Shown here: positions 2,979 to 46,455 of the stretch, piece after piece
Layout of the letters: every line of letters begins with the position of its first letter
Numbering within the stretch: position 1 is the first letter of the stretch
Position numbers and translations under genes: made by a program
The notes under the pieces: generated by a model
Databases searched by the model: none
Seen by the model: the letters and a program-made list of their open reading frames with translations, nothing else
What the model was told of the DNA's origin: nothing
Sequence record: NC_054929.1
DNA length: 64,000 nt
Direction: 5' to 3' (one strand)
Source of the DNA: Escherichia phage PE37

Positions 2979-3124
2979 GTCCATTCATAGGTATTACAAG
3001 CGCTGCATTAGTATCCGGTAGCATTTTACTGGCGGGTTTAGGTGTTGTTCCAGCCGTAGCAGGAGGTCTTCTTGCGTTCGGCATTCAACGTGTTATCATG
3101 ACAGTTATCACAGTCATGCAGTAA
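2975..3124 (+). CDS. small hydrophobic peptide (49 aa)
   Basis: ATGA-coupled to gene 52; Gly/Ala-rich TM peptide; followed by terminator. Confidence 0.35.
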   Translation: MSPFIGITSAALVSGSILLAGLGVVPAVAGGLLAFGIQRVIMTVITVMQ

Positions 3125-3128
3125 TTTT

Positions 3129-3156
3129 AGGGAGAGCCTCGGCTCTCCCTTTTTTA
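3129..3156 (+). terminator. intrinsic terminator
   Basis: AGGGAGAGCC-TC-GGCTCTCCCT stem followed by TTTTT. Confidence 0.7.
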
Positions 3157-3181
3157 TTTCAAAAATTTTTTTCACAAAAAG

Positions 3182-3211
3182 GTTTACAACCAAAGCATAC
3201 TGTGGTACTAT
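3182..3211 (+). promoter_or_regulatory. early promoter upstream of motA
   Basis: GTTTAC 3182-3187, 18-bp spacer, TGGTACTAT 3203-3211. Confidence 0.6.
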
Positions 3212-3252
3212 ACAACTATCAACTACTGATACAGAATTACGGAGATTAGAAA

Positions 3253-3888
3253 ATGTCTAAAGTAACTTACATCATCAAAGCTTCTAACGATGTTCTGAAT
3301 GAAAAAACTGCTGCGATTTTAATTACTATTGCTAAGAAAGATTTCATTACAGCCGCAGAAGTTCGTGAGGTGCATCCAGATTTAGGTAACGCAGTAGTTA
3401 ATAGTAATATTGGGGTATTGATTAAAAAAGGCCTGGTGGAGAAATCTGGTGATGGATTAATCATTACTGGTGAAGCTCAGGATATTATTTCAAATGCAGC
3501 AACTTTATATGCACAGGAAAATGCTCCGGAACTGCTGAAAAAACGAGCAACTCGTAAAGCTCGCGAGATTACTTCCGATATGGAAGAAGATAAAGACCTC
3601 ATGTTAAAACTTTTAGATGAAAATGGATTTGTTCTTAAAAAGGTTGAAACTTATCGTAGTAATTATCTTGCCATTTTAGAAAAACGTACTTACGGAATTC
3701 GCAATTTTGAAATTAACAACAATGGAAATATGCGAATTTTTGGATACAAAATGATGGAACATCATATTCAGAAATTTACTGATATCGGAATGTCATGTAA
3801 AATCGCTAAAAACGGTAATGTGTATCTTGACATTAAACGCTCGGCAGAAAACATTGAAGCTGTAATCACTGTAGCATCTGAACTGTGA
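3253..3888 (+). CDS. motA: middle transcription activator MotA
   Basis: 211 aa; sequence matches T4 MotA. Confidence 0.9.
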   Translation: MSKVTYIIKASNDVLNEKTAAILITIAKKDFITAAEVREVHPDLGNAVVNSNIGVLIKKGLVEKSGDGLIITGEAQDIISNAATLYAQENAPELLKKRATRKAREITSDMEEDKDLMLKLLDENGFVLKKVETYRSNYLAILEKRTYGIRNFEINNNGNMRIFGYKMMEHHIQKFTDIGMSCKIAKNGNVYLDIKRSAENIEAVITVASEL

Positions 3889-3898
3889 GGAATAAATA

Positions 3899-4228
3899 AT
3901 GAACAAGTTAGAAATTGTCAATGAACTTCGTCGTTGTGCAGAACCTACTCAAGAGGGTTGGGATATTTGGTACCATGGAGCTTATCTTGGAACTATCGTA
4001 AAGATTAAGACTGGTAAATACATGATTATTCGTGAAAGTAAAGATGCTCCAGTAGGTATTCGTAATAATTTTATGGCAGCGATAAGTTCATTTACGGATG
4101 CAGCTTACGAAATTTACCTTGCTGATTATAAAGAATTCCAGGAATCTCAACCAGTTATTCGTTCAATTGGTGTTAACAAAGCTCAACAGAAAACTTTGTG
4201 GCAACGTATTAAAGGATGGTTTAAATGA
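3899..4228 (+). CDS. hypothetical protein (arn.4-like position)
   Basis: ORF with SD; synteny between motA and arn. Confidence 0.5.
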
Positions 4229-4686
4229 AAACTTTTAAAGAACGTTTAGCTCTGTTAGATAAAGCTTTGTTACGTGAGACTCCGGAAAGTCTGGCTGCTA
4301 AATTAGCTTCTTACGGCGGTGAATATACAGAACAAAATGTTTTAGATGAAGTTCCTGAAATCTGTTGGCAGACTGCATATTGGGATGAAAATCAAAAGTA
4401 TCAACGACGAATTGTCTGTGCAGCCAACCGTTTTAAATTAAAAGATGGACGAACTCTTATTATTCCAGGTGCTCGTCATTATTCTAAAGATATGGCAGAA
4501 GTTTTAGATGTAGTTAAACCTCAATTAGTTACTCAACAAGTTTGTGATGATGACCAAGGGTTTATTGACCAATATAGTAATTATTGGACACGTGAAGAAG
4601 CAATGATTATTGCAACTTACGCTGGACAAGTACGTATTGAACGTGGTGGTAGTGAAAAAGAACTTTACTCTGAGGACCTTTACTAA
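4225..4686 (+). CDS. hypothetical protein (arn.3-like position)
   Basis: ATGA-coupled ORF. Confidence 0.5.
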
Positions 4687-5980: not shown

Positions 5981-6637
5981 TTATTTAGCCCTTCCTAATA
6001 TTCTGGCCGCCTGAGCACATATTGATTCAAGGCGGTCATTACTTATATGATCATTTCTATACCAGTACATGGTTATCGTTCCAGCATAGATATTATCCAA
6101 ATTAAAATATGGACAACTGTACATGTAGTTTATTTCGGGAGTAGGCTTTTTAGTTGGTAAAAAAGCAAATTTTGAGTTGGAATAATAATGACGTCCATTT
6201 AAATGAACTGCATATTCATCCATAGTTTTATCAACAGGATATCCTCCAAGTGATTTTTCACTTATTGTTGAAGGTAATTTTCCTTCATATGCTATAATAT
6301 CGACAAAATAGTTTAAGTTTTTAGGGCGGAAAGAATACACCGCACTAAAGTCTGCCTCAGATGATATGTGAACTATCTGGAGTTGTTCCAGGGCGACAGA
6401 TTCAAAGCGTGCATTTCTTTCCTTTTCAATAATTTCACTGTATGTTTCATACTTTGATTGCTTATAGTACTCAAAGAAACTATCTCCCCTATACCAAACA
6501 ATCGCCATCATAAACAAAAGAATTACGACAGCTACCCGGGAAGCAAGAACTTTCCCGGTAGCGTTATCTTTGAACAAGCGATCTAGAACACCAAATAAAA
6601 TATCAGAGGGCGAAAATGATATTCTAGGTGCTGCCAT
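5981..6637 (-). CDS. t: holin T
   Basis: 218 aa with N-terminal TM segment; T4 holin length; stop abuts asiA stop. Confidence 0.92.
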   Translation of the reverse strand: MAAPRISFSPSDILFGVLDRLFKDNATGKVLASRVAVVILLFMMAIVWYRGDSFFEYYKQSKYETYSEIIEKERNARFESVALEQLQIVHISSEADFSAVYSFRPKNLNYFVDIIAYEGKLPSTISEKSLGGYPVDKTMDEYAVHLNGRHYYSNSKFAFLPTKKPTPEINYMYSCPYFNLDNIYAGTITMYWYRNDHISNDRLESICAQAARILGRAK

Positions 6638-6667
6638 AGACCCTCCTTTTAAGGATATTTATTCAAA

Positions 6668-10790
<4,123 letters not shown>

Positions 10791-10798
10791 AAGTCCTC

Positions 10799-11455
10799 TT
10801 AATAATAGCCGAAATCTTGAACAGAATCCTTAATAACAATTTGGTCAAATCGTGGAACATGCGAGGGTTGAGATGCAGGATTCTGTGAAAAAAGGTTTGG
10901 CGCAGTTAAATTTCCTGTCATAGTGTCTCCAGAGCGTAATACCCTAGAGTTTGCGTTTGCGGTAACAATATTTATTGCTCCATCAACATAATCTTTCCGC
11001 GTAAGGTCATAATTATTTACTGGTGATAACGAAGTTACACGGATTTGTGATGCTTCAATTACGCCCTTTGAGCTAATATCTCCATTTCGTGTGTTAATTA
11101 CTACAGTTCTACCTGCTGTTCCTTGTGATGATTTAAAACCAATACCATACCACGAAACAATATCCATATTTGTAGTATCATACGTGGCACTATCACCAGG
11201 ACCAGCAAAAATACCATTATCACCTGACCCTGCGCCAGGAACAGTCATTCCTTTATTAAAAATTACTTTATTTAAATATGTACCGCCATTAGCTTTAGAA
11301 ACGAAATCGTTATCAGCAGCTTGTGGTTTATTATATTCTGAATATATTTTAAATGATTTATAGAGTACATCGTCACCGGCTGGATTCAATGGAAAATTTC
11401 CTTGATGCCAAATGACAGAGCCTCCAGTTGTTGAACCTACTTTTAAATCAGCCAT
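10799..11455 (-). CDS. 36: long tail fibre distal connector gp36
   Basis: 218 aa; T4 gp36-like sequence and synteny. Confidence 0.9.
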   Translation of the reverse strand: MADLKVGSTTGGSVIWHQGNFPLNPAGDDVLYKSFKIYSEYNKPQAADNDFVSKANGGTYLNKVIFNKGMTVPGAGSGDNGIFAGPGDSATYDTTNMDIVSWYGIGFKSSQGTAGRTVVINTRNGDISSKGVIEASQIRVTSLSPVNNYDLTRKDYVDGAINIVTANANSRVLRSGDTMTGNLTAPNLFSQNPASQPSHVPRFDQIVIKDSVQDFGYY

Positions 11456-11478
11456 TGTATGCCCCTTTATTTTAATAG

Positions 11479-11486
11479 TATTTATA
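11479..11486 (-). promoter_or_regulatory. late promoter (TATAAATA) for gene 36
   Basis: plus strand TATTTATA = TATAAATA on minus strand, about 24 nt upstream of gene 36 ATG. Confidence 0.6.
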
Positions 11487-11513
11487 AAGAAAAAGGGAAC
11501 CCGAAGGCTCCCT
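11487..11513 (-). terminator. intrinsic terminator after gene 35
   Basis: minus-strand hairpin GGGAGCC-UUCG-GGUUCCC followed by UUUUUCUUU. Confidence 0.55.
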
Positions 11514-11517
11514 CAAT

Positions 11518-12633
11518 TTAAACTTCTCTAAATTCTTGTCCAAACACTTTACCAGTTTTAGACGATGCTTGCGTAGGAAGTACCATTATATCCGGAGGTG
11601 AAGCAGATTCACAGATATAATTAACTCGAATACCATTGACGCCAAACTCGGCAGGTTTTGAAATGCCGCCATTTCTTGACACTTCAGAAAAGCTTAAATT
11701 TCTCATACCGCCTTGACCCGCTTGTGCAGTTCTCTGTGCGTATATCGTAAATCCTACTGCATTTTCAGGAACAACTACATAATCTTCTTTTAATTCCCAA
11801 GACCCAGCTTGTCCGGTAAACTCAGCTTGTGTCGAGGAAATATATCCATTCGATGCATTATAAAAACGGATAGATATATTTGTAGTTCCAAGAGCGAGTA
11901 AATCTGCATCAGCATATAGTTGTGCTTTAAGATAAAGCACATCACCAGGAATTAAATTGTAGTCAGAAAGTTTACTTATCGCGGATGAAGTTGGTAGACG
12001 CGCAATTTCGTTATTAGTTCCACCAACCGCTGACATGAATTGCTCAACACTTTCATACGTTCTTCTTGGAAACCCGGTAGCTCCAACATCTTCTAAACTG
12101 TCAAATACAACATCTAAAATAGTTTGATAGTCATCTGTGCTTTTTCTGTTACTCAGTTTAACATGCTCTAGTGCAATAGCTCTTTTAGAAGAAGTGTAAA
12201 AGGCAGCATATGATACGTCAAATCTTGACAATAAAGAATCAGATGGAAAAGCAGATGTTCCTGCCGTTCTTAACCAAGATACTACTTCAGGAGGAAAATT
12301 AACCTTTCCGCTAGTTAATATAGCAACAAGTCTATTACTTGAAAAAGAATTCATGAAACTAACAAAAGCAGCTGATGTAGTATCATTTGAAGTCGAAAAA
12401 GCATATGACTTACTATCAACCAATGATCCTGTGGAAGGGTCAAAAACTCTTAAATGAAGACCTGCACTAAATGTTTGACTTCCTACAGGATTATCTTGAA
12501 ATTTAACATAAGGCCCTACGGTAGAAAGCGGGCAAGAACCCGCTATACTTATTTTATATCTTACTGAATTGCTTTCCGATAAAAATGGCGTTTGGACATA
12601 TCCTTGTCCAAACTCTGCCATAAATTTTTCCAT
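11518..12633 (-). CDS. 35: long tail fibre hinge connector gp35
   Basis: 371 aa; synteny and T4 gp35-like sequence. Confidence 0.9.
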   Translation of the reverse strand: MEKFMAEFGQGYVQTPFLSESNSVRYKISIAGSCPLSTVGPYVKFQDNPVGSQTFSAGLHLRVFDPSTGSLVDSKSYAFSTSNDTTSAAFVSFMNSFSSNRLVAILTSGKVNFPPEVVSWLRTAGTSAFPSDSLLSRFDVSYAAFYTSSKRAIALEHVKLSNRKSTDDYQTILDVVFDSLEDVGATGFPRRTYESVEQFMSAVGGTNNEIARLPTSSAISKLSDYNLIPGDVLYLKAQLYADADLLALGTTNISIRFYNASNGYISSTQAEFTGQAGSWELKEDYVVVPENAVGFTIYAQRTAQAGQGGMRNLSFSEVSRNGGISKPAEFGVNGIRVNYICESASPPDIMVLPTQASSKTGKVFGQEFREV

Positions 12634-12641
12634 AATACCTC

Positions 12642-15600
12642 TTATTCAACCCATTCAAATTTAACAGTTTTATTCACTGGGTCAGGAATAATGCGAACAT
12701 TACCAATTCGTAAGAAATCACGAATAGTAAGATTACCCATTGTAGCATTATCAGATGGTAAAGCACCAATATCAGATGGTTGAGGAGGGTTACCTCCATC
12801 AAATACCTGAACAAAACTTGACCAAGAATTTTTGGTTTTCTGCCATGTACGTGTCCATCGAGTGGTACGCGCTTCTGGCGTTGTTGGATAAGTAATCCAA
12901 TCTTGGTAAAGCGAATCAAGTGTGTTACCAAACTGAGTCAGTGTACCAGGAGATTTAACTTCTTCGCCACGTTCTAAATATGGAAGACCAGTCACTTCAT
13001 TAGTTTTTTCAACCATTTTAAAATAACCTGGGAACTGGTTATAAGTAGCTGAATCGTTAATATCAATTGACCAGAATCCTACAGTATCAGATGTTGGCGC
13101 ACGTGTATATAAGTCAGATGTTTTAGTACCTTGAGAACGAATTCTCGAGTTAACAGTCAAACCACCTGAATTTATAGTAGCACCTTTGGCAATGATTAAG
13201 CTTTCACCAATCGTTACTTGGCCAGATGCATTATTAATAGCTAATGGGCGTAATCCATTAAATCCACCAGTCTGATCACCCGATGCAGTAAGCATAAAAT
13301 TCGTTACTGATCCATCATTGCGAACAATAAAACCGTAATTTCCGTTAATAGCACGGAAAGCATTTGCGCTTCGAGAAATAATTTCACCAGTTGCAGTGAC
13401 TGAATTACCAAATGTTGCTACGCCATTTGCATTCAATGTTCCTGAAGCATTAACATTTATCGGTGTTACTGTACCGTTGATATTAAATGTTATATTTCCG
13501 GCTTTATTGCGCTGAGAATAAAAATGACTAGATGTTTCATCACTAACTTCAAATACGGTAGAACGTGTTGTATCTGATTCCCCACTAAATTGATTCCCCC
13601 ACACTTTGACATTCATCGTCTGCGCTGGGTTCGTTCCAGTTTGAGGTCCTTTCTCAAAAATCAATTGAGTTGCTGTTCCAGTATTAGAAATAGTTAGTGT
13701 ACTATTTGCTGAAACTGATCCACCAAATGTAGCAGTACTAGATGATACAAGAGGGGCACTCAGATTCGTTTGTTGAGTTAAGGTTAGTGAACCATTAACC
13801 GTCTGCGCAATATCCCTACGAATGAACTGGGATGAATCTAGACCATCCAATAAATTCGTGTCAGCAGCTTTTGCTTTTAATGGCAAATAATTTGCTAATA
13901 CACGGTTTAATTCGTATGGTGATACTGCATAGCTATTTTTCTCATATGATTCTAATGGCTGTGTTGAACCTACCGTATCATTACCAACGAATGTAATTGA
14001 ACCAGATGAAGTTTTAACAAAGCCTCTTACTGCAGTAGTTGCTGCCCAAGTAGGTTCGCTCTGCACGATCCATTTTAAATTTTTTGGAGATACAGCAGTA
14101 TTTGCTGATGTTCCAGTCACAGTTTCAGATTGAGTTGCAACTTTAATAACGCCTTCTTGTGCTTCGGTAGATTTAGTACCTAAAAGCTTTTTAGGAGTTA
14201 TTAAAACATTATCTAATGTTCCTGCAGCAGCTTCAACTTGTGTAGCCACACGAAGTGTACCACGCTGCGTCTCATTTGCTTCAAGAATATTAAGGGTATA
14301 ATGGTCCCAGAGAGTTCCTGATTCAACTAATCCAGATAGAGCAACAACAGAAGTACGATCAGTACTATTAAATCTAGTTTTAATTTTTAATGGTGTAGAG
14401 ATACGAGTATCGTCGACGCCTGCGTCGAATTCAACTTGTGTAGCAATTTCAGCTATACCACTTAAACTTTCAGTTGCTCTACGGTCATTTAAAGTTTTAG
14501 GAGTGACTGCACGAGTATAATCAGTTCCTGTATTAACTTCACTTTGCGTAGCAATTTCAATTAAACCAATTCTTCCATCAGTTGATGTCTTTTTATGTAA
14601 CGTTTCTGGAGTTACAACAGCATTTGCCCATCCTTCTTGACTTTGACCAGCAATTACTTCACTTTCAACTGCTAAAATTACTGCACCTTGCTGTGTTGGA
14701 GTAGCTTTATACTGATCCAAAGCTTTAGGTGAAACAACTAAATTATTGGTGTTTTTATTATAAACATTCGTACCATTTAATTCACGGCTAGAAGCTGGAG
14801 TAGCACCTGCAGTAGATACAAAAGTTACAATACCAGATAATGATTCAGAACCTTGGCGAGCTTGAAGCTTTTTAGGAGTGATGATTGTCGTATCATCAGT
14901 ACCTGTATTAGTTTCCTGTTGCGTAGCAATTTCAGCGACACCCCTACGAGTTTCTGTAGCAGTTCTTTCATTCAACTTTTTAGGAGTGATGATAAGGTCA
15001 TCTGCAAAAGAGAATGTGGTATCCTGGTTTACTTGCGCAGTTGTTGCTATTCTTGCAATACCTCTACGAGTTTCTGTAGCAGTACGATTAGCTAACGTTT
15101 CTGGAGTAATTGCCAGTTCTTTTTGCGGAGAATTTTCTAGATCAGCATTAGCTTGAGCCTGTGTAGCTAAAGCAATTACGCCTAATCTTGCTCTAGTAGA
15201 ATTATTTAAAGAGTCTACTCTTTCTACAGTTGGAACGTTTTGCTGTACAACCCAATATTTTCCATCGGAATCTTCGATATAAGCAAGCTGTAAAACTGGA
15301 ACATAATTGGTTTCGCCATTAAAAACTAATTCTTGAACAGTCACCCATTTAGTTTCAGGTGGGTATTCTGAACGTTTTGGAAATTGCAGCAATTGAACTG
15401 AAGAAGCAATTTTATCTTCACCGGCAGCTTTGATTTTAACTGTTTGTCCTTTTCTCATATAATTCATGGAAATCTTAACAGTATCACCGATAGAAATATC
15501 AGTTGGAAGCTGAAGTTCAATTGTTTGGGTTGTTCCATTATTCGCGCCAAATACCATGACTTCTTCATTTGGACGAATACTAGAATTAGTTGTTATAATA

Positions 15601-16511
15601 CGTAAACGTGCTTTACTATCCCCGTCAAACAATCTCCACAATTTTTCATTATCATCATACATTAAGAAACCATCAATCGATGTACGACCTTCAATGGAAT
15701 GAGTTCCAACTTCTTGTACAGAAGTAGTTTCATCATATGTGGTAACAATTGTGTGATAAAGTGGATTTAATTTATCTAAATCAACAAAATTAATAATATC
15801 CCCATGATTAGCAAATCTAGGAAGTTTAATATTAATTGCTGAAGCAGAAGTAAATCTACGCACGATAAAATCGTTTGATTGCGCTTGATAAAGACTTGCC
15901 GGTGTTACAACTGCCGCTTCTCTGCTATAATCAGCAACATACATTTGCCACAGACGATTACTAAAAATTAAAACTATCTGTGATTTTGGATGAGTCATTA
16001 GTACTGAGCGTACTTGTTGACCTCTAAAATTTACAATGCTTTGCACTGGAGCTGTAATTAAAACTTGGTTAACTCCAGGTTTTCCACCAATATCTTGAAG
16101 AACGATAGTATCTCCATCAATTGGAGAAGTTGGCAAAGTAAATGTGATATCATTTCCTGCTGCAGTGTTAACTGAAATTGATTCACCTGACTTTAATTGA
16201 TAAGGTCCTGACGAAACAGTTGTCCAGTTTGCATCAGTGCGTAACGCTCTCCATCGTACGCTATTAAAAGCTCCTGCTGGTTTTGGAATATCATTTATAG
16301 CAGCCCAAAAGCGGTTATCATAAATGATTACAAAATCTTTTAAATATCCACGAGTTGGATCATATTGTTGAACTGTGTTTTCTTGAATTAAGTAATCAAC
16401 GTTTACACCGTCAGTTCCTACGGTACGATCAGCTAAAGCTACGTTGATTATTTTATCACCACCTGCGTCCAGACCGTCTTCTGCTCTGAACTTTCTTTTA
16501 ATCTCGGCCAT
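12642..16511 (-). CDS. 34: long tail fibre proximal subunit gp34
   Basis: 1289 aa, exactly the T4 gp34 length; internal tandem fibre repeats. Confidence 0.95.
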   Translation of the reverse strand: MAEIKRKFRAEDGLDAGGDKIINVALADRTVGTDGVNVDYLIQENTVQQYDPTRGYLKDFVIIYDNRFWAAINDIPKPAGAFNSVRWRALRTDANWTTVSSGPYQLKSGESISVNTAAGNDITFTLPTSPIDGDTIVLQDIGGKPGVNQVLITAPVQSIVNFRGQQVRSVLMTHPKSQIVLIFSNRLWQMYVADYSREAAVVTPASLYQAQSNDFIVRRFTSASAINIKLPRFANHGDIINFVDLDKLNPLYHTIVTTYDETTSVQEVGTHSIEGRTSIDGFLMYDDNEKLWRLFDGDSKARLRIITTNSSIRPNEEVMVFGANNGTTQTIELQLPTDISIGDTVKISMNYMRKGQTVKIKAAGEDKIASSVQLLQFPKRSEYPPETKWVTVQELVFNGETNYVPVLQLAYIEDSDGKYWVVQQNVPTVERVDSLNNSTRARLGVIALATQAQANADLENSPQKELAITPETLANRTATETRRGIARIATTAQVNQDTTFSFADDLIITPKKLNERTATETRRGVAEIATQQETNTGTDDTTIITPKKLQARQGSESLSGIVTFVSTAGATPASSRELNGTNVYNKNTNNLVVSPKALDQYKATPTQQGAVILAVESEVIAGQSQEGWANAVVTPETLHKKTSTDGRIGLIEIATQSEVNTGTDYTRAVTPKTLNDRRATESLSGIAEIATQVEFDAGVDDTRISTPLKIKTRFNSTDRTSVVALSGLVESGTLWDHYTLNILEANETQRGTLRVATQVEAAAGTLDNVLITPKKLLGTKSTEAQEGVIKVATQSETVTGTSANTAVSPKNLKWIVQSEPTWAATTAVRGFVKTSSGSITFVGNDTVGSTQPLESYEKNSYAVSPYELNRVLANYLPLKAKAADTNLLDGLDSSQFIRRDIAQTVNGSLTLTQQTNLSAPLVSSSTATFGGSVSANSTLTISNTGTATQLIFEKGPQTGTNPAQTMNVKVWGNQFSGESDTTRSTVFEVSDETSSHFYSQRNKAGNITFNINGTVTPINVNASGTLNANGVATFGNSVTATGEIISRSANAFRAINGNYGFIVRNDGSVTNFMLTASGDQTGGFNGLRPLAINNASGQVTIGESLIIAKGATINSGGLTVNSRIRSQGTKTSDLYTRAPTSDTVGFWSIDINDSATYNQFPGYFKMVEKTNEVTGLPYLERGEEVKSPGTLTQFGNTLDSLYQDWITYPTTPEARTTRWTRTWQKTKNSWSSFVQVFDGGNPPQPSDIGALPSDNATMGNLTIRDFLRIGNVRIIPDPVNKTVKFEWVE
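14076..15191 (-). repeat. tandem ~40-aa tail-fibre repeat units within gp34
   Basis: recurring ITPxxL...RxATExxxG...IAT motif about 8 times (aa ~441-812), with partial nucleotide-level repeats, e.g. 14941-14965 versus 15057-15080. Confidence 0.6.
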
Positions 16512-38986: not shown

Positions 38987-39255
38987 TGTTTGTCGTTCAC
39001 ACTATTTATGAAAATGAAGGTAATACTACACGTGATTACGGTCACGTAAATCAATTTTTTAGATGCAATCCAGAATTTCGAGCTCAAAAAGACGAACGAA
39101 TTTTTAAAAAATGTGTAGAGCAAGGTTTCATTTACGTCAAGCACTGGATGCAAGGAAATAAAGTTAGAACAACGTACCACAGGTCTTTGACTGAGCTTAA
39201 TGATGAATTGATTTATAATAGAGCTGTAAACCAAACTCTAAAGGATGAACAATGA
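38986..39255 (+). CDS. hypothetical protein (89 aa)
   Basis: coupled ORF upstream of ligase. Confidence 0.5.
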   Translation: MFVVHTIYENEGNTTRDYGHVNQFFRCNPEFRAQKDERIFKKCVEQGFIYVKHWMQGNKVRTTYHRSLTELNDELIYNRAVNQTLKDEQ

Positions 39256-40718
39256 TTCTTAAAATTCTGAACGAAATAGCATCTATTGGTTCAACTAAGC
39301 AGAAGCAAGCAATTCTTGAAAAGAACAAAGATAATGAATTGCTTAAACGAGTATATCGTCTGACTTATTCTCGTGGGTTACAGTATTATATCAAGAAATG
39401 GCCTAAACCTGGTATTGCTACCCAGAGTTTTGGAATGCTGACCATTACCGATATGCTTGACTTCATTGAATTCACGTTAGCTACTCGGAAATTAACTGGC
39501 AATGCAGCAATTGAGGAATTAACTGGATATATCACCGATGGTAAAAAGGATGATGTTGAAGTTTTGCGTCGAGTTATGATGCGAGACCTTGAATGCGGTG
39601 CTTCAGTATCTATTGCAAACAAAGTTTGGCCAGGTTTAATTCCTGAACAACCTCAAATGCTGGCAAGTTCTTATGATGAAAAGGGCATTAGTAAGAATAT
39701 CAAATTTCCAGCCTTTGCACAGTTAAAAGCAGATGGAGCCCGGTGTTTTGCTGAAGTCCGAGGTGATGAATTAGATGATGTTCGTCTTTTATCACGAGCT
39801 GGTAATGAATATCTAGGATTAAACCTTCTCAAAGAAGAGTTAATCAAAATGACCGCTGAAGCTCGCCAGATTCATCCAGAAGGTGTGTTAATTGATGGCG
39901 AATTGGTAGTATACCATGAGCAAGTTGAAAAGGAGCCAGAAGGTCTAGATTTTCTTTTTGATGCTTATCCTGAAATTAGTAAAGCTAAAGAATTCGCTGA
40001 AGTAGCTGAATCACGTACTACTTCTAATGGAATAGCTAATAAATCTTTAAAGGGAACCATTTCTGAAAAAGAAGCACAATGCATGAAGTTTCAGGTCTGG
40101 GATTATGTTCCATTAGTAGAAATATACGGTCTTCCAGCATTTCGTTTGAAATATGATGTACGTTTTTCTAAACTAGAACAAATGACATCGGGATATGATA
40201 AAGTAATTTTAATTGAAAACCAGGTAGTAAATAACCTAGATGAAGCTAAGGTAATTTACAAAAAGTATATTGACCAAGGTCTTGAAGGTATTATTCTCAA
40301 AAATATCGATGGATTATGGGAAAATGCTCGTTCAAAAAATCTTTATAAATTTAAAGAAGTAATTGATGTTGATTTAAAAATTGTAGGAATTTATCCTCAC
40401 CGTAAAGACCCTACTAAAGCGGGTGGATTTATTCTTGAGTCAGAGTGTGGAAAAATTAAAGTAAATGCTGGTTCAGGCTTAAAAGATAAAGCCGGTGTAA
40501 AATCGCATGAACTTGACCGTACTCGCATTATGGAAAACCAAAATTATTATATTGGAAAAATTCTAGAGTGCGAATGCAACGGTTGGTTAAAATCTGATGG
40601 CCGCACTGATTACGTTAAATTATTTCTTCCAATTGCGATTCGTTTACGTGAAGATAAAACTAAAGCTAATACGTTCGAAGATGTATTTGGCGATTTTCAT
40701 GAGGTAACTGGTTTATGA
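39252..40718 (+). CDS. 30: ATP-dependent DNA ligase
   Basis: 488 aa; KADGARC adenylation motif; T4 ligase length and sequence. Confidence 0.95.
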   Translation: MILKILNEIASIGSTKQKQAILEKNKDNELLKRVYRLTYSRGLQYYIKKWPKPGIATQSFGMLTITDMLDFIEFTLATRKLTGNAAIEELTGYITDGKKDDVEVLRRVMMRDLECGASVSIANKVWPGLIPEQPQMLASSYDEKGISKNIKFPAFAQLKADGARCFAEVRGDELDDVRLLSRAGNEYLGLNLLKEELIKMTAEARQIHPEGVLIDGELVVYHEQVEKEPEGLDFLFDAYPEISKAKEFAEVAESRTTSNGIANKSLKGTISEKEAQCMKFQVWDYVPLVEIYGLPAFRLKYDVRFSKLEQMTSGYDKVILIENQVVNNLDEAKVIYKKYIDQGLEGIILKNIDGLWENARSKNLYKFKEVIDVDLKIVGIYPHRKDPTKAGGFILESECGKIKVNAGSGLKDKAGVKSHELDRTRIMENQNYYIGKILECECNGWLKSDGRTDYVKLFLPIAIRLREDKTKANTFEDVFGDFHEVTGL

Positions 40719-40903
40719 AAGCTTACTTAGAAACAATTGTCGTGGCTCAAAAAGAAGGTGGAGATGTTTCTACTTCTGTATCACAAATCATGATTGAATT
40801 TATAGATGCATATGCTTATAATAAATTCACAGAAACTTTTGATGCTTATGAAAAAGGTCCAAAGTTTGAAATATATCGTACTCTCTTACAAATAGATTAT
40901 TAA
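40715..40903 (+). CDS. hypothetical protein (62 aa)
   Basis: ATGA-coupled to ligase. Confidence 0.45.
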   Translation: MKAYLETIVVAQKEGGDVSTSVSQIMIEFIDAYAYNKFTETFDAYEKGPKFEIYRTLLQIDY

Positions 40904-40926
40904 AGGCCTTCGGGCCTTTAATTTTA
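40902..40926 (+). terminator. intrinsic terminator
   Basis: AAAGGCC-TTCG-GGCCTTT followed by AATTTTAT. Confidence 0.6.
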
Positions 40927-40932
40927 TAAATA
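40925..40932 (+). promoter_or_regulatory. late promoter (TATAAATA) for alt
   Basis: exact TATAAATA about 24 nt upstream of alt ATG; Alt is a virion-packaged late protein in T4. Confidence 0.6.
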
Positions 40933-40955
40933 GAATAAACACTAGAGAGGATATG

Positions 40956-43049
40956 ATGGAACTCATTACAGAATTATTTGACGAAGATACTACTCTTCCG
41001 ATTACAAACTTAAATCCAAAGAAGAAAATACCACAAATTTTTTCAGTTCACGTTGATGATGCAATTGAACAACCAGGCTTTCGTTTATGTACCTATACAT
41101 CTGGAGGTGATACTAATCGCGATTTAAAGATGGGAGATAAAATGATGCATATTGTTCCTTTTACATTAACTGCTAAAGGTTCAATTGCTAAATTAAAAGG
41201 TCTGGGTCCAAGCCCGATTAATTATATCAATTCAGTTTTTACTGTTGCAATGCAAACAATGCGTCAATATAAAATTGATGCCTGTATGCTTCGTATTCTT
41301 AAGTCTAAAACTGCTGGCCAAGCTCGACAAATTCAAGTTATTGCTGATAGACTTATCCGTAGTCGTTCAGGTGGTAGATACGTCCTTCTTAAGGAACTCT
41401 GGGATTACGATAAAAAGTATGCATATATTCTTATACATCGCAAAAATGTATCACTAGAAGACATTCCAGGAGTTCCGGAAATTAGTACCGAGCTCTTTAC
41501 TAAAGTTGAATCGAAGGTCGGTGATGTTTATATCAATAAAGATACTGGAGCTCAAGTAACTAAAAATGAGGCAATTGCAGCATCTATTGCGCAAGAAAAT
41601 GATAAACGTTCTGACCAAGCTGTAATCGTTAAAGTTAAAATTTCACGTAGAGCAATTGCGCAAAGTCAATCATTGGAATCTTCTAGATTTGAAAGTGAAT
41701 TATTCCAGAAGTATGAATCTACCGCAGCTAATTTCAATAAACCTGCTACCGCTCCTTTAATTCCCGAAGCAGAAGAAATGAAGCTTGGAATTAATTCGTT
41801 AGCTTCTAAAACTAAGGCAGCAAAAATTATTGCTGAAGGAACTGCGAATGAACTTCACTATGACTATAAATTCTTTTCAAAAAGTGAGGTTGATGAAGTT
41901 TCAGAAAAAATTAAAGATGTAATTTTTAACGCAATCAAAAATGAACCAACTACTTCAATAAAATGTTTAGAGAAATACGCAGCAGCTGTTAATAAATTCT
42001 TTGAAGAATATAAAGATAATTGGCTTGATAAACATAATAAAACTCGTAAAGGGCAACCAGATGAAGTCTGGGGAGAAATAACTAAAAATGCATGGAATAC
42101 AGCAAAAACTAAATTCCTCAAACGAATGATTTATAGCTTTTCTGGAATTGGTGCTGGTCCAATGATTGATATTACTATTGCCCGTGATGGTTCTAAATAT
42201 ACTCCATCACAAAAGCGAGGTATTAGAGAATATTGTGGTTCAGGATATACAGACATTAATAATCTTCTTTTAGGTCGTTACAATCCAGAACGATATGATG
42301 TAATGAGTGAAAAAGAAATTGAATCTGCTATAAATAACTTAGATTCAGCTTTTGAAAATGGTGACCGTATACCAGAAGGCATTACAGTTTATCGTGCTCA
42401 AAGTATGACTGCTCCTATATATGAAGCGTTAGTTAAAAATAAAGTGTTCTATTTCAGAAATTTTGTATCTACTTCTTTAACTCCTATTATTTTTGGACGT
42501 TTTGGAATCACACATGCTGGTATTGGTCTTTTAGAACCAGAAGCTCGCAATGAATTAACAGTTGATAAAAATGAAGAAGGAATAACTATTAATCCAAACG
42601 AAATAAGAGCGTATAAAGAAAATCCTGAATACGTTAAAGTTCAAATAGGATGGGCAATTGATGGAGCTCATAAAGTTAATGTTGTATATCCAGGAAGTCT
42701 TGGAATAGCAACAGAAGCTGAAGTTATTCTACCGCGTGGATTGATGGTCAAAGTTAATAAAATAACTGATGCTTCTAATAATGACGGAACAACATCTAAT
42801 AATACAAAACTCATTCAAGCTGAAGTTATGACCACGGAAGAGCTCACCGAATCGGTAATCTATGATGGAGACCATTTAATGGAAACTGGTGAATTGGTTG
42901 CAATGACAGGTGATACTGAAATAGAAGACAGAGTTGACTTTGCATCATTTGTTTCATCAAATGTTAAACAGAAAGTCGAATCATCTCTTGGAATTATTGC
43001 GTCTTGCATAGATATTACAAACATGCCTTACAAGTTCGTTCAAGGATAA
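40956..43049 (+). CDS. alt: ADP-ribosyltransferase Alt
   Basis: 697 aa from second ATG; N-terminus MELITELFDEDTTLPITNL matches T4 Alt; C-terminal ART signature YRAQS / FVSTSL / EAE. Confidence 0.9.
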   Translation: MELITELFDEDTTLPITNLNPKKKIPQIFSVHVDDAIEQPGFRLCTYTSGGDTNRDLKMGDKMMHIVPFTLTAKGSIAKLKGLGPSPINYINSVFTVAMQTMRQYKIDACMLRILKSKTAGQARQIQVIADRLIRSRSGGRYVLLKELWDYDKKYAYILIHRKNVSLEDIPGVPEISTELFTKVESKVGDVYINKDTGAQVTKNEAIAASIAQENDKRSDQAVIVKVKISRRAIAQSQSLESSRFESELFQKYESTAANFNKPATAPLIPEAEEMKLGINSLASKTKAAKIIAEGTANELHYDYKFFSKSEVDEVSEKIKDVIFNAIKNEPTTSIKCLEKYAAAVNKFFEEYKDNWLDKHNKTRKGQPDEVWGEITKNAWNTAKTKFLKRMIYSFSGIGAGPMIDITIARDGSKYTPSQKRGIREYCGSGYTDINNLLLGRYNPERYDVMSEKEIESAINNLDSAFENGDRIPEGITVYRAQSMTAPIYEALVKNKVFYFRNFVSTSLTPIIFGRFGITHAGIGLLEPEARNELTVDKNEEGITINPNEIRAYKENPEYVKVQIGWAIDGAHKVNVVYPGSLGIATEAEVILPRGLMVKVNKITDASNNDGTTSNNTKLIQAEVMTTEELTESVIYDGDHLMETGELVAMTGDTEIEDRVDFASFVSSNVKQKVESSLGIIASCIDITNMPYKFVQG

Positions 43050-43052
43050 ATC

Positions 43053-45110
43053 ATGGAACTTATTACAGAATTATTTGACGGCGCTTCGGCGCCGGTTGTT
43101 AACTTAAATCCTAAGCATAAAATACCACAAATTTTTGCTATTCAAGCCGGCGAAGAAAGCGTGCTTCCTGGATTTAGATTTTGTACATACACCTCTGGTG
43201 GTGATACGAATAAAAACGTTAAGCCAGGCGATAAAATGATGCATATCGTAATGATAGGTGTTAATGAGAAATTATCGTTAGTTAAGCTTAAAAACTTGGG
43301 TGGAAATCCAATTGGTGTCATTAATGCGGTTTTTGATACTGCTCTTCAAACAATGAAACAGTATAAAATTGATGCATGTTTATTCCGCGTACTAAAAAGT
43401 AAAACAAATGGCGCAGCTCGTCAAATGCAAGTTATTGCTGACCGTTTAGTACGTACTAAAGGAGCAGGTCGATATGTTCTTTTAAAGGAAATCTGGGATT
43501 ATGATAAAAAGTATGCATATATTATGGTTTACCGTAAAAATGCCAATTTAGAAGACATTCCAGGTGTACCTCCTATTTCAACTGAGTTATTCACAAAAGT
43601 TGAATCAAAGGTTGGTGATGTTTATGTAGACGTTAAAACAGGTAATGCTGTTCCTAAAGCTGTTGCTGTTGCCGCTTCTATTGCTTTAGAAAATGATAAG
43701 CGCACGGATCAAGCTGTTATTCAGAAAACTAAAATTAGTCGTCGATTAGCAGCACAAGCTCAATATTCTACTGTCGATGCTTCACTTCAGGGTGATAGCT
43801 TCGCCGCTAAGAAATATCAAGAGTTTGAATCTAAAGTTCCGGTATATAAAGCAGAAGGACCAATGAACTCTGGCGTTATTCAGATTGGTTCAAACTTCAG
43901 CAAAGGAGCTATCGGTGGTATGAGAAGTGCTTCTCGTTTTAAATCTAATGATTATGAACTAGAAAGTTTCCGAAATCATATTGCATTAGCCCATGCACGT
44001 TTACGCGATCCATCTATCAAGCTGCAGAGCGATACATCATATCAAGGTTCCCAGGAATATTTAAAGAATAAAGACTTCTTTAATTACAAAACTGATAAAA
44101 TTTTAAGCGATCTTGCTGATATTAATATTTCTAATAGTTTTGATGTTATTAAGAAAATTATCAATGATTTAGTTAAAGGTTCTAAAGCTACACCAGATGA
44201 AAAGACAGCTATTATTCAATTTGTAATGAATGGAATTTATAAATTAATTGATGAATCCGCTGCTCAGGCGTATGAATATGCAAGCACTGAAGTAACTCCA
44301 AAAGGATTAACTCAGGCTGAGTCCGATGTAATTGAAGATTATTGTGCAGATTCATATGTTGAAATGAACTCGTTCCTCTTGGGTAAACCAGATTCTACCC
44401 GTGAAGAATACATGGAACGAGCTATTAAACACATCGAGACAATGGATTCTGCCTTTGCCAAAGGATCAGTTCTTCCTCCAGGAACTACGCTTTATCGTGG
44501 ACAAGAAGTTACCTTTAAAACTTTACGTCATAATATTGAAAATAAAATGTTCTACTTCAAGAACTTCGTATCCACATCGCTTAAACCAAATATCTTCGGT
44601 GAGCATGGTAAAAACTATATGGCTCTAGATGATTCCGGTGCAGTATTTTCTGGTGAAGGAGAAGGTTCCGTTGATGCTGAAGATTTAATGCATATGGGTA
44701 GTCATTCTGCTTATGCGAATGAAGATGCTGAAACTAGCGTGGGTATGGTAATAAAAGGAGCTGAGCGAATTAAAGTTATCGTTCCAGGTCATTTATCAGG
44801 ATTTCCATCAGAAGCTGAAGTTATTCTACCGCGTGGAATTTTGCTGAAGATTAATAAAGTGAGTACTTACTTTATGAAAGAAACTGCTTATAACAAGTAT
44901 CTAATCGAAGGTACAATCGTTCCTCCTTCTGAACAATTAGAAGAATCAGTATATGATGGCGACCATCTAATGGAAACTGGTGAAGTTCGTCCAATGGCTG
45001 GATTTAATCAATTCCTTGTAGAAGAATCAAAAGAAGAGGAAAACGAAGTTTCTCAAATCTTAGCTTCTTTGGTTAACATCAACGGAATGTCTAAAAAGTT
45101 CAAGATGTAG
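43053..45110 (+). CDS. second Alt-like ADP-ribosyltransferase paralog
   Basis: 685 aa; N-terminal ~235 aa about two-thirds identical to Alt by eye; divergent middle; retains R (LYRGQ), STS (FVSTSL) and ExE (EAE) motifs; AAGGA SD 6 nt upstream. Confidence 0.8.
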   Translation: MELITELFDGASAPVVNLNPKHKIPQIFAIQAGEESVLPGFRFCTYTSGGDTNKNVKPGDKMMHIVMIGVNEKLSLVKLKNLGGNPIGVINAVFDTALQTMKQYKIDACLFRVLKSKTNGAARQMQVIADRLVRTKGAGRYVLLKEIWDYDKKYAYIMVYRKNANLEDIPGVPPISTELFTKVESKVGDVYVDVKTGNAVPKAVAVAASIALENDKRTDQAVIQKTKISRRLAAQAQYSTVDASLQGDSFAAKKYQEFESKVPVYKAEGPMNSGVIQIGSNFSKGAIGGMRSASRFKSNDYELESFRNHIALAHARLRDPSIKLQSDTSYQGSQEYLKNKDFFNYKTDKILSDLADINISNSFDVIKKIINDLVKGSKATPDEKTAIIQFVMNGIYKLIDESAAQAYEYASTEVTPKGLTQAESDVIEDYCADSYVEMNSFLLGKPDSTREEYMERAIKHIETMDSAFAKGSVLPPGTTLYRGQEVTFKTLRHNIENKMFYFKNFVSTSLKPNIFGEHGKNYMALDDSGAVFSGEGEGSVDAEDLMHMGSHSAYANEDAETSVGMVIKGAERIKVIVPGHLSGFPSEAEVILPRGILLKINKVSTYFMKETAYNKYLIEGTIVPPSEQLEESVYDGDHLMETGEVRPMAGFNQFLVEESKEEENEVSQILASLVNINGMSKKFKM

Positions 45111-45139
45111 TTTACAAGGCCCTCATGTTGTGTTATAGT
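45110..45139 (+). promoter_or_regulatory. early promoter with RBS-complementary arm in the spacer
   Basis: GTTTAC 45110-45115, 18-bp spacer, TATAGT 45134-45139; CCTCATGTTGTG 45121-45132 is the exact reverse complement of CACAACATGAGG 45151-45162, which covers the SD. Confidence 0.55.
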
Positions 45140-45170
45140 AGTCTTACTGACACAACATGAGGAACACAAA

Positions 45171-45461
45171 ATGAAATCTTCTTTGCGCTTTTTAGGTCAA
45201 GAACTCGTCGTTGAAGGCGTTATTCCCGCTGATAACGCTTTCAATGAAGCAGTTTACGATGAATTTATCAAAATTTTTGGAACAGATAAAAAGTTCGGAA
45301 TTTTTCCTTCTGAAAATTTTTCAAAGCCAGAACAGACTGAAAGTATTTTTCAGGGTGTAGTAACAGGTAAATTTGAGTCAGAAGCTCCGGTAAAAATTGA
45401 AGTTTATATTGAAGAAACCTCTGTTGCTTCAGTTGCTGCTTTTATTTCATTCCGTAAATAA
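45171..45461 (+). CDS. hypothetical protein (96 aa)
   Basis: GAGGA SD 45159-45163 then ATG 45171. Confidence 0.55.
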   Translation: MKSSLRFLGQELVVEGVIPADNAFNEAVYDEFIKIFGTDKKFGIFPSENFSKPEQTESIFQGVVTGKFESEAPVKIEVYIEETSVASVAAFISFRK

Positions 45462-45465
45462 AAAT

Positions 45466-45487
45466 ATGGGGACCGAAAGGTCCCCAT
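45466..45487. terminator. bidirectional terminator hairpin between convergent ORF 45171-45461 and gene 54
   Basis: ATGGGGACC-GAAA-GGTCCCCAT with T-rich flanks on both strands. Confidence 0.6.
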
Positions 45488-45489
45488 TG

Positions 45490-46455
45490 TTATATTGCTC
45501 CTAATATTTTACTTTGCGAATTGACAATTCCTGTCATAGTATTAATATTTGAAATGCTTCCTGCAGTTCCCCCTAATCTACTAAGTCGTGAAAGCGAATT
45601 AGATAGTCCAGTAACACCTCCACTATTTCCGAGAACGCTTTGAATACCATTTATAGTAGCAGATTCAAGCCATTCAAGGGCAGCTTGTCTATCAACTGCT
45701 CCAGCCTGCATGACTCTATAAGCGAAAGTAACATCAAATGTAGTTATTTGGTTATCTCCATCATATGATAACTCAGGAGCACTCACAGATATTGGAATAC
45801 AGCCAGTGAACATCACCGCAGTATGTGGTAATCCATTGCGAGAATGAAGATTGACCTGAATATCTGCCTCGACATCTTGCGGTAAAGCACGCAATCCAGT
45901 TACTGGGTCTTGAACAGCGTTAACCCAGTCTTGCATTGCACGATAGTTACAAGCTTCGGAATCCATTCTAAATGAAATAACCAAAGGGTCTAATTCTCTT
46001 CCAGTTATACGAATATTAGGAGAATTATAGTTCCAGTCAGTTTCATAGGATAATCTATTCTCTGGCATTTTTACAGAATATATCATCAATCCAGATGAGT
46101 TATATGCCATGTTAAAGAAGTCAATTAAATATGTACCAACTGTAAATGAGCCTAATAAACTTTGAACTGTACGTTGACTCATGGCACCAATAAGATATTT
46201 ACTAACCCCTGATTTTCTTATCAGTTTTTGTGTGCCAGCGGTAATTAGCGTGGTAATTCCCTGATTAATATCACCTTGAGTTAATCCCAACCAATCTGAA
46301 TTTAGACCCAAGTTATTATAAGCAAAGTTACTAATTGAGCTTATTAACGATGAGCTTTTAGTTGATGGAGTTGTAGCAAAAACACAGCTGAACATATTAT
46401 TACGTTGGAAGTCTGCGTTTATTGCTTGATTATTAAATTCCTCTAAAGAATACAT
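45490..46455 (-). CDS. 54: baseplate tail-tube initiator gp54
   Basis: 321 aa; synteny and length. Confidence 0.85.
   Translation of the reverse strand: MYSLEEFNNQAINADFQRNNMFSCVFATTPSTKSSSLISSISNFAYNNLGLNSDWLGLTQGDINQGITTLITAGTQKLIRKSGVSKYLIGAMSQRTVQSLLGSFTVGTYLIDFFNMAYNSSGLMIYSVKMPENRLSYETDWNYNSPNIRITGRELDPLVISFRMDSEACNYRAMQDWVNAVQDPVTGLRALPQDVEADIQVNLHSRNGLPHTAVMFTGCIPISVSAPELSYDGDNQITTFDVTFAYRVMQAGAVDRQAALEWLESATINGIQSVLGNSGGVTGLSNSLSRLSRLGGTAGSISNINTMTGIVNSQSKILGAI

Follow-up and report, generated by a model that had tools for sequence, protein, structure and literature searches.

Two tandem genes at positions 40956–45110 of a 64,000-nucleotide (nt) stretch of Escherichia phage PE37 (NC_054929.1), which stretch is a segment of a T-even (Tequatrovirus) genome and will be called the window, all coordinates being those of the window, probably represent the ancestral and intact form of the T-even alt region, encoding two mono-ADP-ribosyltransferases that would be packaged in the head of the phage and injected into its host. 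The first gene, alt (open reading frame 1, ORF1; 40956–43049, + strand; 697 amino acids, aa), encodes the head-packaged Alt ADP-ribosyltransferase (ART) in its T2/RB32-type effector allele, and the second, alt.-2 (ORF2; 43053–45110, + strand; 685 aa), encodes an intact second Alt paralog. ORF2 is an old paralog that strong purifying selection has preserved in most genomes of Tequatrovirus.

The original prediction, made from the letters of the sequence, had described two adjacent and full-length paralogs of the Alt family, which description was confirmed by the ORF list and by BLASTP: the two products can be aligned over their full length, 42% of the 718 columns being identical (E = 4e-161). 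By ORF1 residues, the identity amounts to 68% (161/237) over 1–238—in keeping with the two-thirds that had been estimated by eye for the N-terminal ~235 aa—and to 24% over the middle region (239–430), which had been called divergent with good reason, 37% over 431–640, and 38% in the C-terminal tail. Both products also keep the R, STS, and ExE signature of the family, as had been proposed, with YRAQ at residue 479 in ORF1 and YRGQ at 481 in ORF2, in addition to STS and EAE. In ORF1 (+ strand) an N-domain (aa 1–238; 40956–41669) and a variable helical middle (aa 239–430) precede the ART domain (aa ~431–632; R480, S505-T-S507, and E587-A-E589) and a predicted C-terminal propeptide (aa 633–697) that follows LTE-632. 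ORF2 (+ strand) has the same four parts: an N-terminal alpha/beta domain (43053–43766, aa 1–238), which includes the ITE-6 propeptide motif; an all-helical middle (43767–44462, aa 239–470), the most divergent part; an ART catalytic core (44463–44945, aa 471–631) with R482 at 44496–44498, S507-T-S509 at 44571–44579, and the ExE motif (E587-A-E589) at 44811–44819, which core ends at LEE-631, a predicted gp21 site; and a predicted C-terminal propeptide (44946–45107, aa 632–685), composed of a disordered linker and a short helix and containing a YDGDHLMETGE block. The profile phrog_802 is matched from position 2 to 674 of its 674 positions by residues 1–696 of ORF1 (7.4e-273) and by residues 1–685 of ORF2 (1.1e-255).

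The comparison with phage T4 identifies ORF2 as the intact form of a gene that T4 has lost. In T4, alt (682 aa) is followed by the small ORFs alt.-1 (61 aa) and alt.-2 (67 aa), of which residues 1–118 of ORF2 are the near-perfect alignment target; the PHROGs of the two fragments (phrog_23015 and phrog_15247) match ORF2 at 2e-40 and 3e-38, and ORF1 at 1e-21 and 2e-19. The T4 DNA matches the window over 43004–43400 (95.5%) and then over 45091–45506 (93.8%), and differs from it by two lesions: a 1-nt deletion in an A-run, which splits alt.-1 from alt.-2, and the loss of 1,699 bp between two 9-bp direct repeats, CTAAAAAGT, whose left (43392–43400) and right (45091–45099) copies on the + strand of the window mark the two deletion ends in the T4 lineage. 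This deletion is microhomology-mediated, and the alt.-2 gene of T4 has been destroyed by the frameshift and the deletion. None of that degeneration is present in the window, where ORF2 is uninterrupted and both copies of CTAAAAAGT stand with 1,699 bp between them. A 120-nt query for the T4-type junction was covered in one piece in 91 of the 496 matching records, which counts include GenBank/RefSeq duplicates and laboratory variants; in the remaining records the query splits into two halves, as it does in the window. From the junction, the lesions, and that share of the records we conclude that T4 represents a derived minority state and the window the intact form. The T4 fragments (NP_049810, NP_049809) therefore have the same gene origin as ORF2, but are pseudogene remnants, unlike the uninterrupted ORF2; and the T4 record misleads where it speaks of a "duplication of the first part of gene alt," for which the comparison gives no support. 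The original prediction had foreseen that the second copy could prove to be the intact form of a gene annotated as small fragments in reference genomes and having a target already known, of which the former turned out to be the case, while a literature search gave no target for Alt.-2.

The alt/alt.-2 pair is a known and widely annotated gene pair and no new kind of system. With a 4.8-kb query of the locus, 343 phage records gave matches that cover at least 80% of the query, and RB32, RB14, RB33, RB51, and RB68 are among the best of these, at ~97% DNA identity; and a full-length ORF2 ortholog at an identity of at least 80% was found by tblastn in ~401 records, nearly all of them at 95–99.6%. 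The RB32 annotation contains both alt and alt.-2, each under the RefSeq product name "Alt-like RNA polymerase ADP-ribosyltransferase," and phage T2 carries both genes. The pair accordingly has no claim to novelty, the two genes being already annotated in hundreds of genomes. Nolan et al. (2006; PMC1524935) listed alt.-1 and alt.-2 of T4 as paralogous alt duplications and reported a full-length alt duplicate in phage 44RR, and the paralogy is mentioned again in a paper of 2026 (PMC13600099), so that the genes, their paralogy, and the speculation on divergent targets are already in databases or in print. Literature searches for the function, targets, biochemistry, and virion proteomics of Alt.-2 found the passing mentions of those two papers only; Alt is not dealt with in an article on injected anti-restriction proteins (PMC12373910) and is not mentioned in PMC9958956. 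The Alt family as such is small, with only 111 members at E ≤0.001 among 1.84 billion representative proteins, many of which members match as two stretches, the N-domain and the ART, with the middle unmatched and least conserved. The family position between gene 30/alt.1 and alt.-3/gene 54 is conserved, and it is there that the pair of the window lies. We also observed a second Pfam family, PF26846, in the precomputed annotations of nearly all the full-length Alt homologs; this family presumably covers the Alt N-terminal domain.

As to whether ORF2 is functional, the pairwise Nei–Gojobori ratios of nonsynonymous to synonymous divergence (dN/dS, or omega) in a sample consisting of the window, RB32, G50, G4498, PP01, and T2 were 0.021–0.061 for ORF2, at a dS of 0.11–0.27, and 0.012–0.055 for alt, the pairs being phylogenetically non-independent. 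When ORF2 was divided into its parts, omega was 0.018 in the N-domain, 0.057 in the helical middle, 0.049 in the ART core, and 0.020 in the C-terminal tail. Both products match the Pfam family PF03496 (ADPrib_exo_Tox) above its gathering threshold of 23.4 bits, ORF1 with 128 bits and ORF2 with 71.9 bits (E = 5.9e-20), and a family alignment of 21 sequences shows no variation at R482, S507, S509, E587, and E589. A search of all the PDB chains with the ORF2 sequence gave no match at E up to 1, for which reason the placement among the ARTs was made by structure prediction and Foldseek. The AlphaFold2 model of ORF2 (pLDDT 71.8 overall and 83.7 in the N-domain) consists of an alpha/beta part (~12–220), an all-helical part (~230–470), and an ART fold (~475–625), and was matched by Foldseek to Certhrax and, with a probability of 1.00, to Vis (4xzk; E = 6.6e-8), VIP2, C3bot, CDTa, and iota Ia, the E values extending to 1e-4; for the single-domain toxins the TM-scores are ~0.6 when normalised by target length. 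T4 Alt, for its part, loses its catalytic activity upon mutation of the ExE glutamate (PMC11404850); the published mutant is named E577A, and the translation of NP_049811 has its ExE glutamates at residues 574 and 576, which mismatch we assume to be a numbering offset.

These results bear on the idea that Alt.-2 is a pseudo-enzyme, kept for a structural role in the prohead core and devoid of transferase activity. Such a role would agree with the description of Alt as an important head-core protein independently of catalysis (PMC11404850) and with the lower Pfam score of ORF2 relative to that of ORF1, but is contradicted by the five invariant catalytic residues, by the omega of the ART core, and by the recovery of the ART fold, so that we regard it as highly improbable. 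The constraint, the invariant residues, the fold, and the need of T4 Alt for its ExE motif together make either a decaying duplicate or a pseudo-enzyme unlikely; ORF2 is apparently functional and selectively maintained.

The delivery of the two proteins can be judged by the precedent of T4 Alt, which is a prohead-core protein present in ~40 copies and ejected into the host with the DNA (PMC9026906), and which is cleaved by gp21 at ITE-6 and LTE-619, the latter cleavage taking off 63 C-terminal residues (PMC5694885). Both ORF1 and ORF2 start with MELITE and have a C-terminal gp21 motif—LTE-632 in ORF1 and LEE-631 in ORF2—followed in both by a conserved S-V-(I)-YDGDHLMETGE block. In the 21-sequence alignment E6 and E631 are invariant, as are Y634, D635, G636, D637, E641, G643, and E644 of that block, and the region of the C-terminal site in ORF2 is predicted to be disordered, the pLDDT of residues 629–664 being below 50. 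An L-x-E motif is likewise found at both termini of alta and altb, the corresponding pair of the Dhakavirus JS98. The packaging and injection of both proteins is consequently likely as far as sequence motifs can indicate, and the N-domain of ORF2 presumably constitutes a module for head-core targeting and retention.

A natural chimera offers a further line of evidence. Phage vB_EcoM_SCS4 (ON506924) has, between alt.1 and alt.-3, a single hybrid gene (2601–4661 of the SCS4 locus stretch) whose product agrees with ORF1 at 100% identity as far as about residue 157 and with ORF2 at ~100% from residue 158 on, the crossover lying in WDYDKKYAYI, a stretch common to both. This hybrid is the product of unequal recombination between the tandem paralogs, from which we deduce that the N-domains are functionally exchangeable and that a phage can manage with the Alt.-2 effector only. 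The statement in the original prediction that both proteins are probably packaged is thus plausible, and gains support from the gp21 motifs of both and from the N-domain swap in the chimera, as a reading of the sequence and not as an observation.

An alternative is that Alt.-2 is produced late but not packaged, and acts in the cytoplasm of the producing cell in the way that ModA and ModB act early. To our knowledge, the classical T-even virion protein lists name only Alt, and the literature search gave no direct evidence for the packaging of Alt.-2, both of which points would suit a cytoplasmic enzyme. Against that possibility, the N-domain is the most constrained part of ORF2 (omega = 0.018) and is 68% identical to that of the packaged Alt, both gp21 motifs are conserved, the N-domains of Alt.-2 and Alt show concerted evolution within each genome, and SCS4 joins an Alt N-terminal region to an Alt.-2 effector; we accordingly consider a cytoplasmic action improbable, and return to packaging as the preferred reading.

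Two observations were made beside these. Five records share the 90–95% identity band of the SCS4 hybrid and may be of its type. In addition, a few metagenomic proteins (P0199, P0217, P0228, P0220, and P0175) match the Alt N-domain only, from phrog_802 position ~5 to ~140–220, and carry other C-termini than Alt, with no Pfam match in any of them; by eye, P0217 (541 aa) is without R/STS/ExE, and P0228 (1142 aa) seems to have two segments resembling an ART. It may be that the N-domain serves as a head-delivery module that can be reused.

The age of the duplication was assessed with JS98, whose alta and altb form the same tandem pair in the same position, the overall identity being 48% for ORF1–alta and also 48% for ORF2–altb, and whose N-terminal propeptide motif is L-N-E versus I-T-E in the window ORFs. 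In a five-sequence alignment with ORF2 numbering, the values of which differ slightly from those of the pairwise segments, ORF1 and alta were 47% identical in the N-domain, 36% in the middle, and 61% in the ART, and ORF2 and altb 46, 45, and 56%, respectively; the cross-pairs, ORF1–altb and ORF2–alta, gave 42–43% in the N-domain, 11–21% in the middle, and 34–35% in the ART. Within the same genome, by comparison, ORF1 and ORF2 were 68% identical in the N-domain, 14% in the middle, and 35% in the ART, and alta and altb 65, 21, and 37%. The effector parts are thus orthologous by position, which relationship implies that the duplication predates the Tequatrovirus/Dhakavirus split, and the N-domains group by genome, which grouping points to concerted evolution or to a co-adaptation to the head core of each phage. 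We rejected a recent gene conversion between the two N-domains in PE37 because the DNA identity there is only 58–80%; the pattern suggests an older concerted evolution or co-adaptation at the level of the genus.

That the second copy would have a substrate other than RNA polymerase alpha had been argued in the original prediction from its divergent middle region, which argument proved to be weak, the middle being just as divergent between Alt orthologs. The window Alt and T4 Alt (NP_049811) coincide in 237 of the 238 residues of the N-domain and in 96% of the C-tail, but in only 36% of the middle and 66% of the ART; the effector part of ORF1 is 98.7% identical to that of T2 alt. Alt has in fact two main effector alleles, the T2/RB32 type, present in ~317 records at an identity of at least 90%, and the T4 type, ~48% identical to the former, and the allele combinations mix, as in G4498, which has a T4-type Alt together with an intact alt.-2. 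The mosaic of Alt over 41670–42851 (ORF1 residues 239–632) looks like a cassette exchange between conserved flanks. The possibility that T4 Alt itself is a recombinant of Alt and Alt.-2 was rejected, for it is no nearer to ORF2 than ORF1 is, its identity to ORF2 being 42% in the ART (versus 37% for ORF1) and 11% in the middle (versus 24% for ORF1).

A better indication on substrates comes from the catalytic domain. Three positions before the ExE motif, ORF2 has F584, ORF1 an Ile, and T4 Alt a Pro; the loop consensus of the C3 and iota toxins is aromatic-x-x-(Q/E)-x-E, with which F584 of ORF2 agrees. Since the two ART cores have no more than 37% identity and the loop before ExE differs, overlapping but non-identical targets seem the most likely outcome, and target sets that are not the same for Alt and Alt.-2 are, judging from these features and from the long conservation of either paralog lineage, more likely than identical ones. 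Alt.-2 could instead be a redundant back-up, packaged and active on the same targets as Alt—Arg265 of RNA polymerase alpha and others—and retained for the sake of dosage or robustness. The two proteins agree in architecture, N-domain, cleavage motifs, and catalytic triad, T4 has lost alt.-2 without an obvious defect, and SCS4 has lost the Alt effector instead, as if either one sufficed; yet the identities of 37% in the ART and 24% in the middle, the distinctness of the two lineages since before the Tequatrovirus/Dhakavirus split (56% in the ART for ORF2–altb versus 34–35% for the cross-pairs), the strong purifying selection on each gene, unexpected in a purely redundant copy, and the F584 versus Ile or Pro before ExE render a mere back-up rather unlikely.

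Going beyond partially different target sets, we may entertain, more tentatively and largely by analogy, that Alt.-2 is a second injected effector with host targets of its own, distinct from RNA polymerase alpha, for which role defence or toxin proteins would be candidates; T4 Alt has been reported to modify the MazF toxin. If that doubtful suggestion were true, alt.-2 would matter on wild E. coli and be dispensable on laboratory strains, the purifying selection in most T-even phages along with the loss in T4 and ~90 records would be explained, and the N-domain would be a general head-delivery module carrying effector "warheads" exchanged by recombination. Hints of such exchangeable warheads come from the effector alleles of Alt, from the SCS4 chimera, and from the N-domain-only relatives with non-ART C-termini.

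With respect to expression, a G+C-rich hairpin (AAAGGCC-TTCG-GGCCTTT; 40899–40922) after alt.1, recorded as a terminator in the annotations of G50 and G4498, ends the early/middle transcription unit lying upstream, and is directly followed by TATAAATA, the T4 late-promoter consensus (40925–40932, + strand), 24 nt upstream of the alt start; the block of hairpin, promoter, and Shine–Dalgarno sequence is identical in 8 phages including T4. The Shine–Dalgarno sequence of ORF2, AAGGA (43042–43046, + strand), lies inside the last alt codons, and only 3 nt separate the alt stop codon (TAA, 43047–43049) from the ORF2 ATG at 43053, which junction is identical in 7 phages, T4 among them. We thus recovered the late-promoter motif and the tight abutment of the genes that the original prediction had reported; no terminator-like site was found between alt and alt.-2. 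A bidirectional terminator hairpin (45466–45487), annotated in G50 and G4498 and located between alt.-3 (+ strand) and gene 54 (− strand), is the end of the alt late transcription unit. The simplest reading of these signals would be a single late transcript over alt, alt.-2, and alt.-3, and a translational coupling of ORF2 to alt, which the original prediction had stated outright, is possible. A second exact TATAAATA is present inside ORF1 (42329–42336, + strand), ~720 nt upstream of ORF2, and may be either a chance match or an internal late promoter giving ORF2 a transcript of its own.

The sequence of events that we propose would begin with the late transcription of both genes from the single TATAAATA promoter at 40925 and the translation of ORF2 from its own AAGGA site, 3 nt past the alt stop. 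Each protein would have four parts—an N-terminal alpha/beta domain of ~230 aa, a variable helical part, a C3/VIP2-like R-S-ExE ART, and a C-terminal propeptide—of which the N-domain, possibly with the terminal propeptides, would bring the protein into the prohead core. There, gp21 would trim both proteins after ITE-6, and ORF1 after LTE-632 and ORF2 after LEE-631, leaving mature forms of ~625 aa. The mature enzymes would be ejected with the DNA and would ADP-ribosylate arginines of host proteins using NAD+, with the effector modules most likely modifying overlapping, though non-identical, sets of host proteins.

Several points weigh against this scheme. The TATAAATA octamer is not enriched in the AT-rich window, with 14 matches versus 9.2 expected, and so the copy at 40925 is credited for its position and conservation and not for the motif count. 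The L/I-x-E cleavage motif is short and could persist for other reasons; the ORF2 model is of moderate confidence in its overall pLDDT, the loop between STS and ExE being unmodelled; the pairs used for dN/dS lack phylogenetic independence; and duplicate entries and laboratory variants are among the records counted. T4 and ~90 other records are without the gene and fully viable, from which viability it follows that alt.-2 is dispensable on laboratory hosts. Finally, the literature search gave no direct evidence of the synthesis, packaging, cleavage, or activity of Alt.-2.

Regarding the start of ORF1, the ORF list places it at 40953 (698 aa, beginning with MMELITE), and the original prediction at 40956. 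The GAGAGG sequence at 40945–40950 is 5 nt from the ATG at 40956 and 2 nt from that at 40953, and on account of this spacing and of the annotated starts in RB32, T2, and T4 we preferred 40956.

Upstream of the pair lie gene 30, encoding DNA ligase (39252–40718, + strand), and alt.1 (40715–40903, + strand), and downstream lies alt.-3 (45171–45461, + strand; 96 aa; DUF5498, PF17602, E = 3e-62), the last gene before the terminator, beyond which genes 54 and 48 are on the − strand. An RNA hairpin at 45121–45162 (+ strand; arms ~45121–45134 and ~45149–45162; −25.1 kcal/mol, z = −4.09) has the alt.-3 ribosome-binding site (GAGG) within its 3′ arm, and embedded in the hairpin is a sigma-70-like promoter, TTTACA-17-TATAGT with an upstream TG (45111–45139, + strand). 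A transcript from this promoter would lose the 5′ arm and so free the alt.-3 site, which site would be occluded in read-through from the alt late unit; the arrangement resembles the promoter-dependent unmasking of ribosome-binding sites known in T4. No tRNA genes were found in the window. On the − strand, 5981–16511 looks like a tail-fibre block by ORF sizes and layout only, and is G+C-richer (0.40–0.415); a 263-aa ORF after a 1103-aa ORF there would suggest what we take to be a T2/T6-type gp38 adhesin and not the shorter T4-type chaperone.

The T4 ADP-ribosyltransferases are an active topic, as in the studies of ModB-dependent RNAylation and of mutants engineered in Alt and ModA, and the work is almost all on T4, which model phage is atypical in being without the conserved and probably injected ART of most of its relatives. 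About four in five sequenced relatives, T2 among them, encode this additional, apparently functional and probably injected, ART, for the orthologs of which the literature searches found no experimental characterisation or reported targets.

Among known systems, the nearest to ORF2 are the alt.-2 genes of RB32, RB14, and RB51 (e.g., YP_803136) and the "alt.-1" of T2 (AYD82791), orthologs of 685 aa and 98–99.6% protein identity in the same position from alt to alt.-3; no substantive difference separates them from ORF2, which constitutes one more allele. T4 Alt is the ortholog of ORF1, with the same promoter, gp21 sites, and R-STS-ExE motifs, and has the four-part architecture and 41% identity in common with ORF2, which represents a separate paralog lineage with an aromatic residue three positions before ExE. 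The alignment with ModA and ModB that the original prediction recommended was uninformative, BLASTP giving nothing below E = 0.03 and the best match of those two enzymes to either ORF having an E value of 0.46 or worse. ModA and ModB have been placed in the same R-S-E-type clade as Alt (PMC5512222), but the two are phage-encoded ARTs of ~200 aa that are without an N-domain, early, and not packaged, so that their architecture differs. The C3, VIP2, iota, CDTa, and Vis toxins (R-S-E clade, PF03496), in turn, resemble the Alt pair in their catalytic fold and in having R, S-T-S, and E-x-E motifs, at only 13–20% identity, but are without the phage head-targeting N-domain and are secreted instead of being delivered by a virion; the Alt proteins, unlike those toxins, contain a long, unmodelled insert between STS and ExE.

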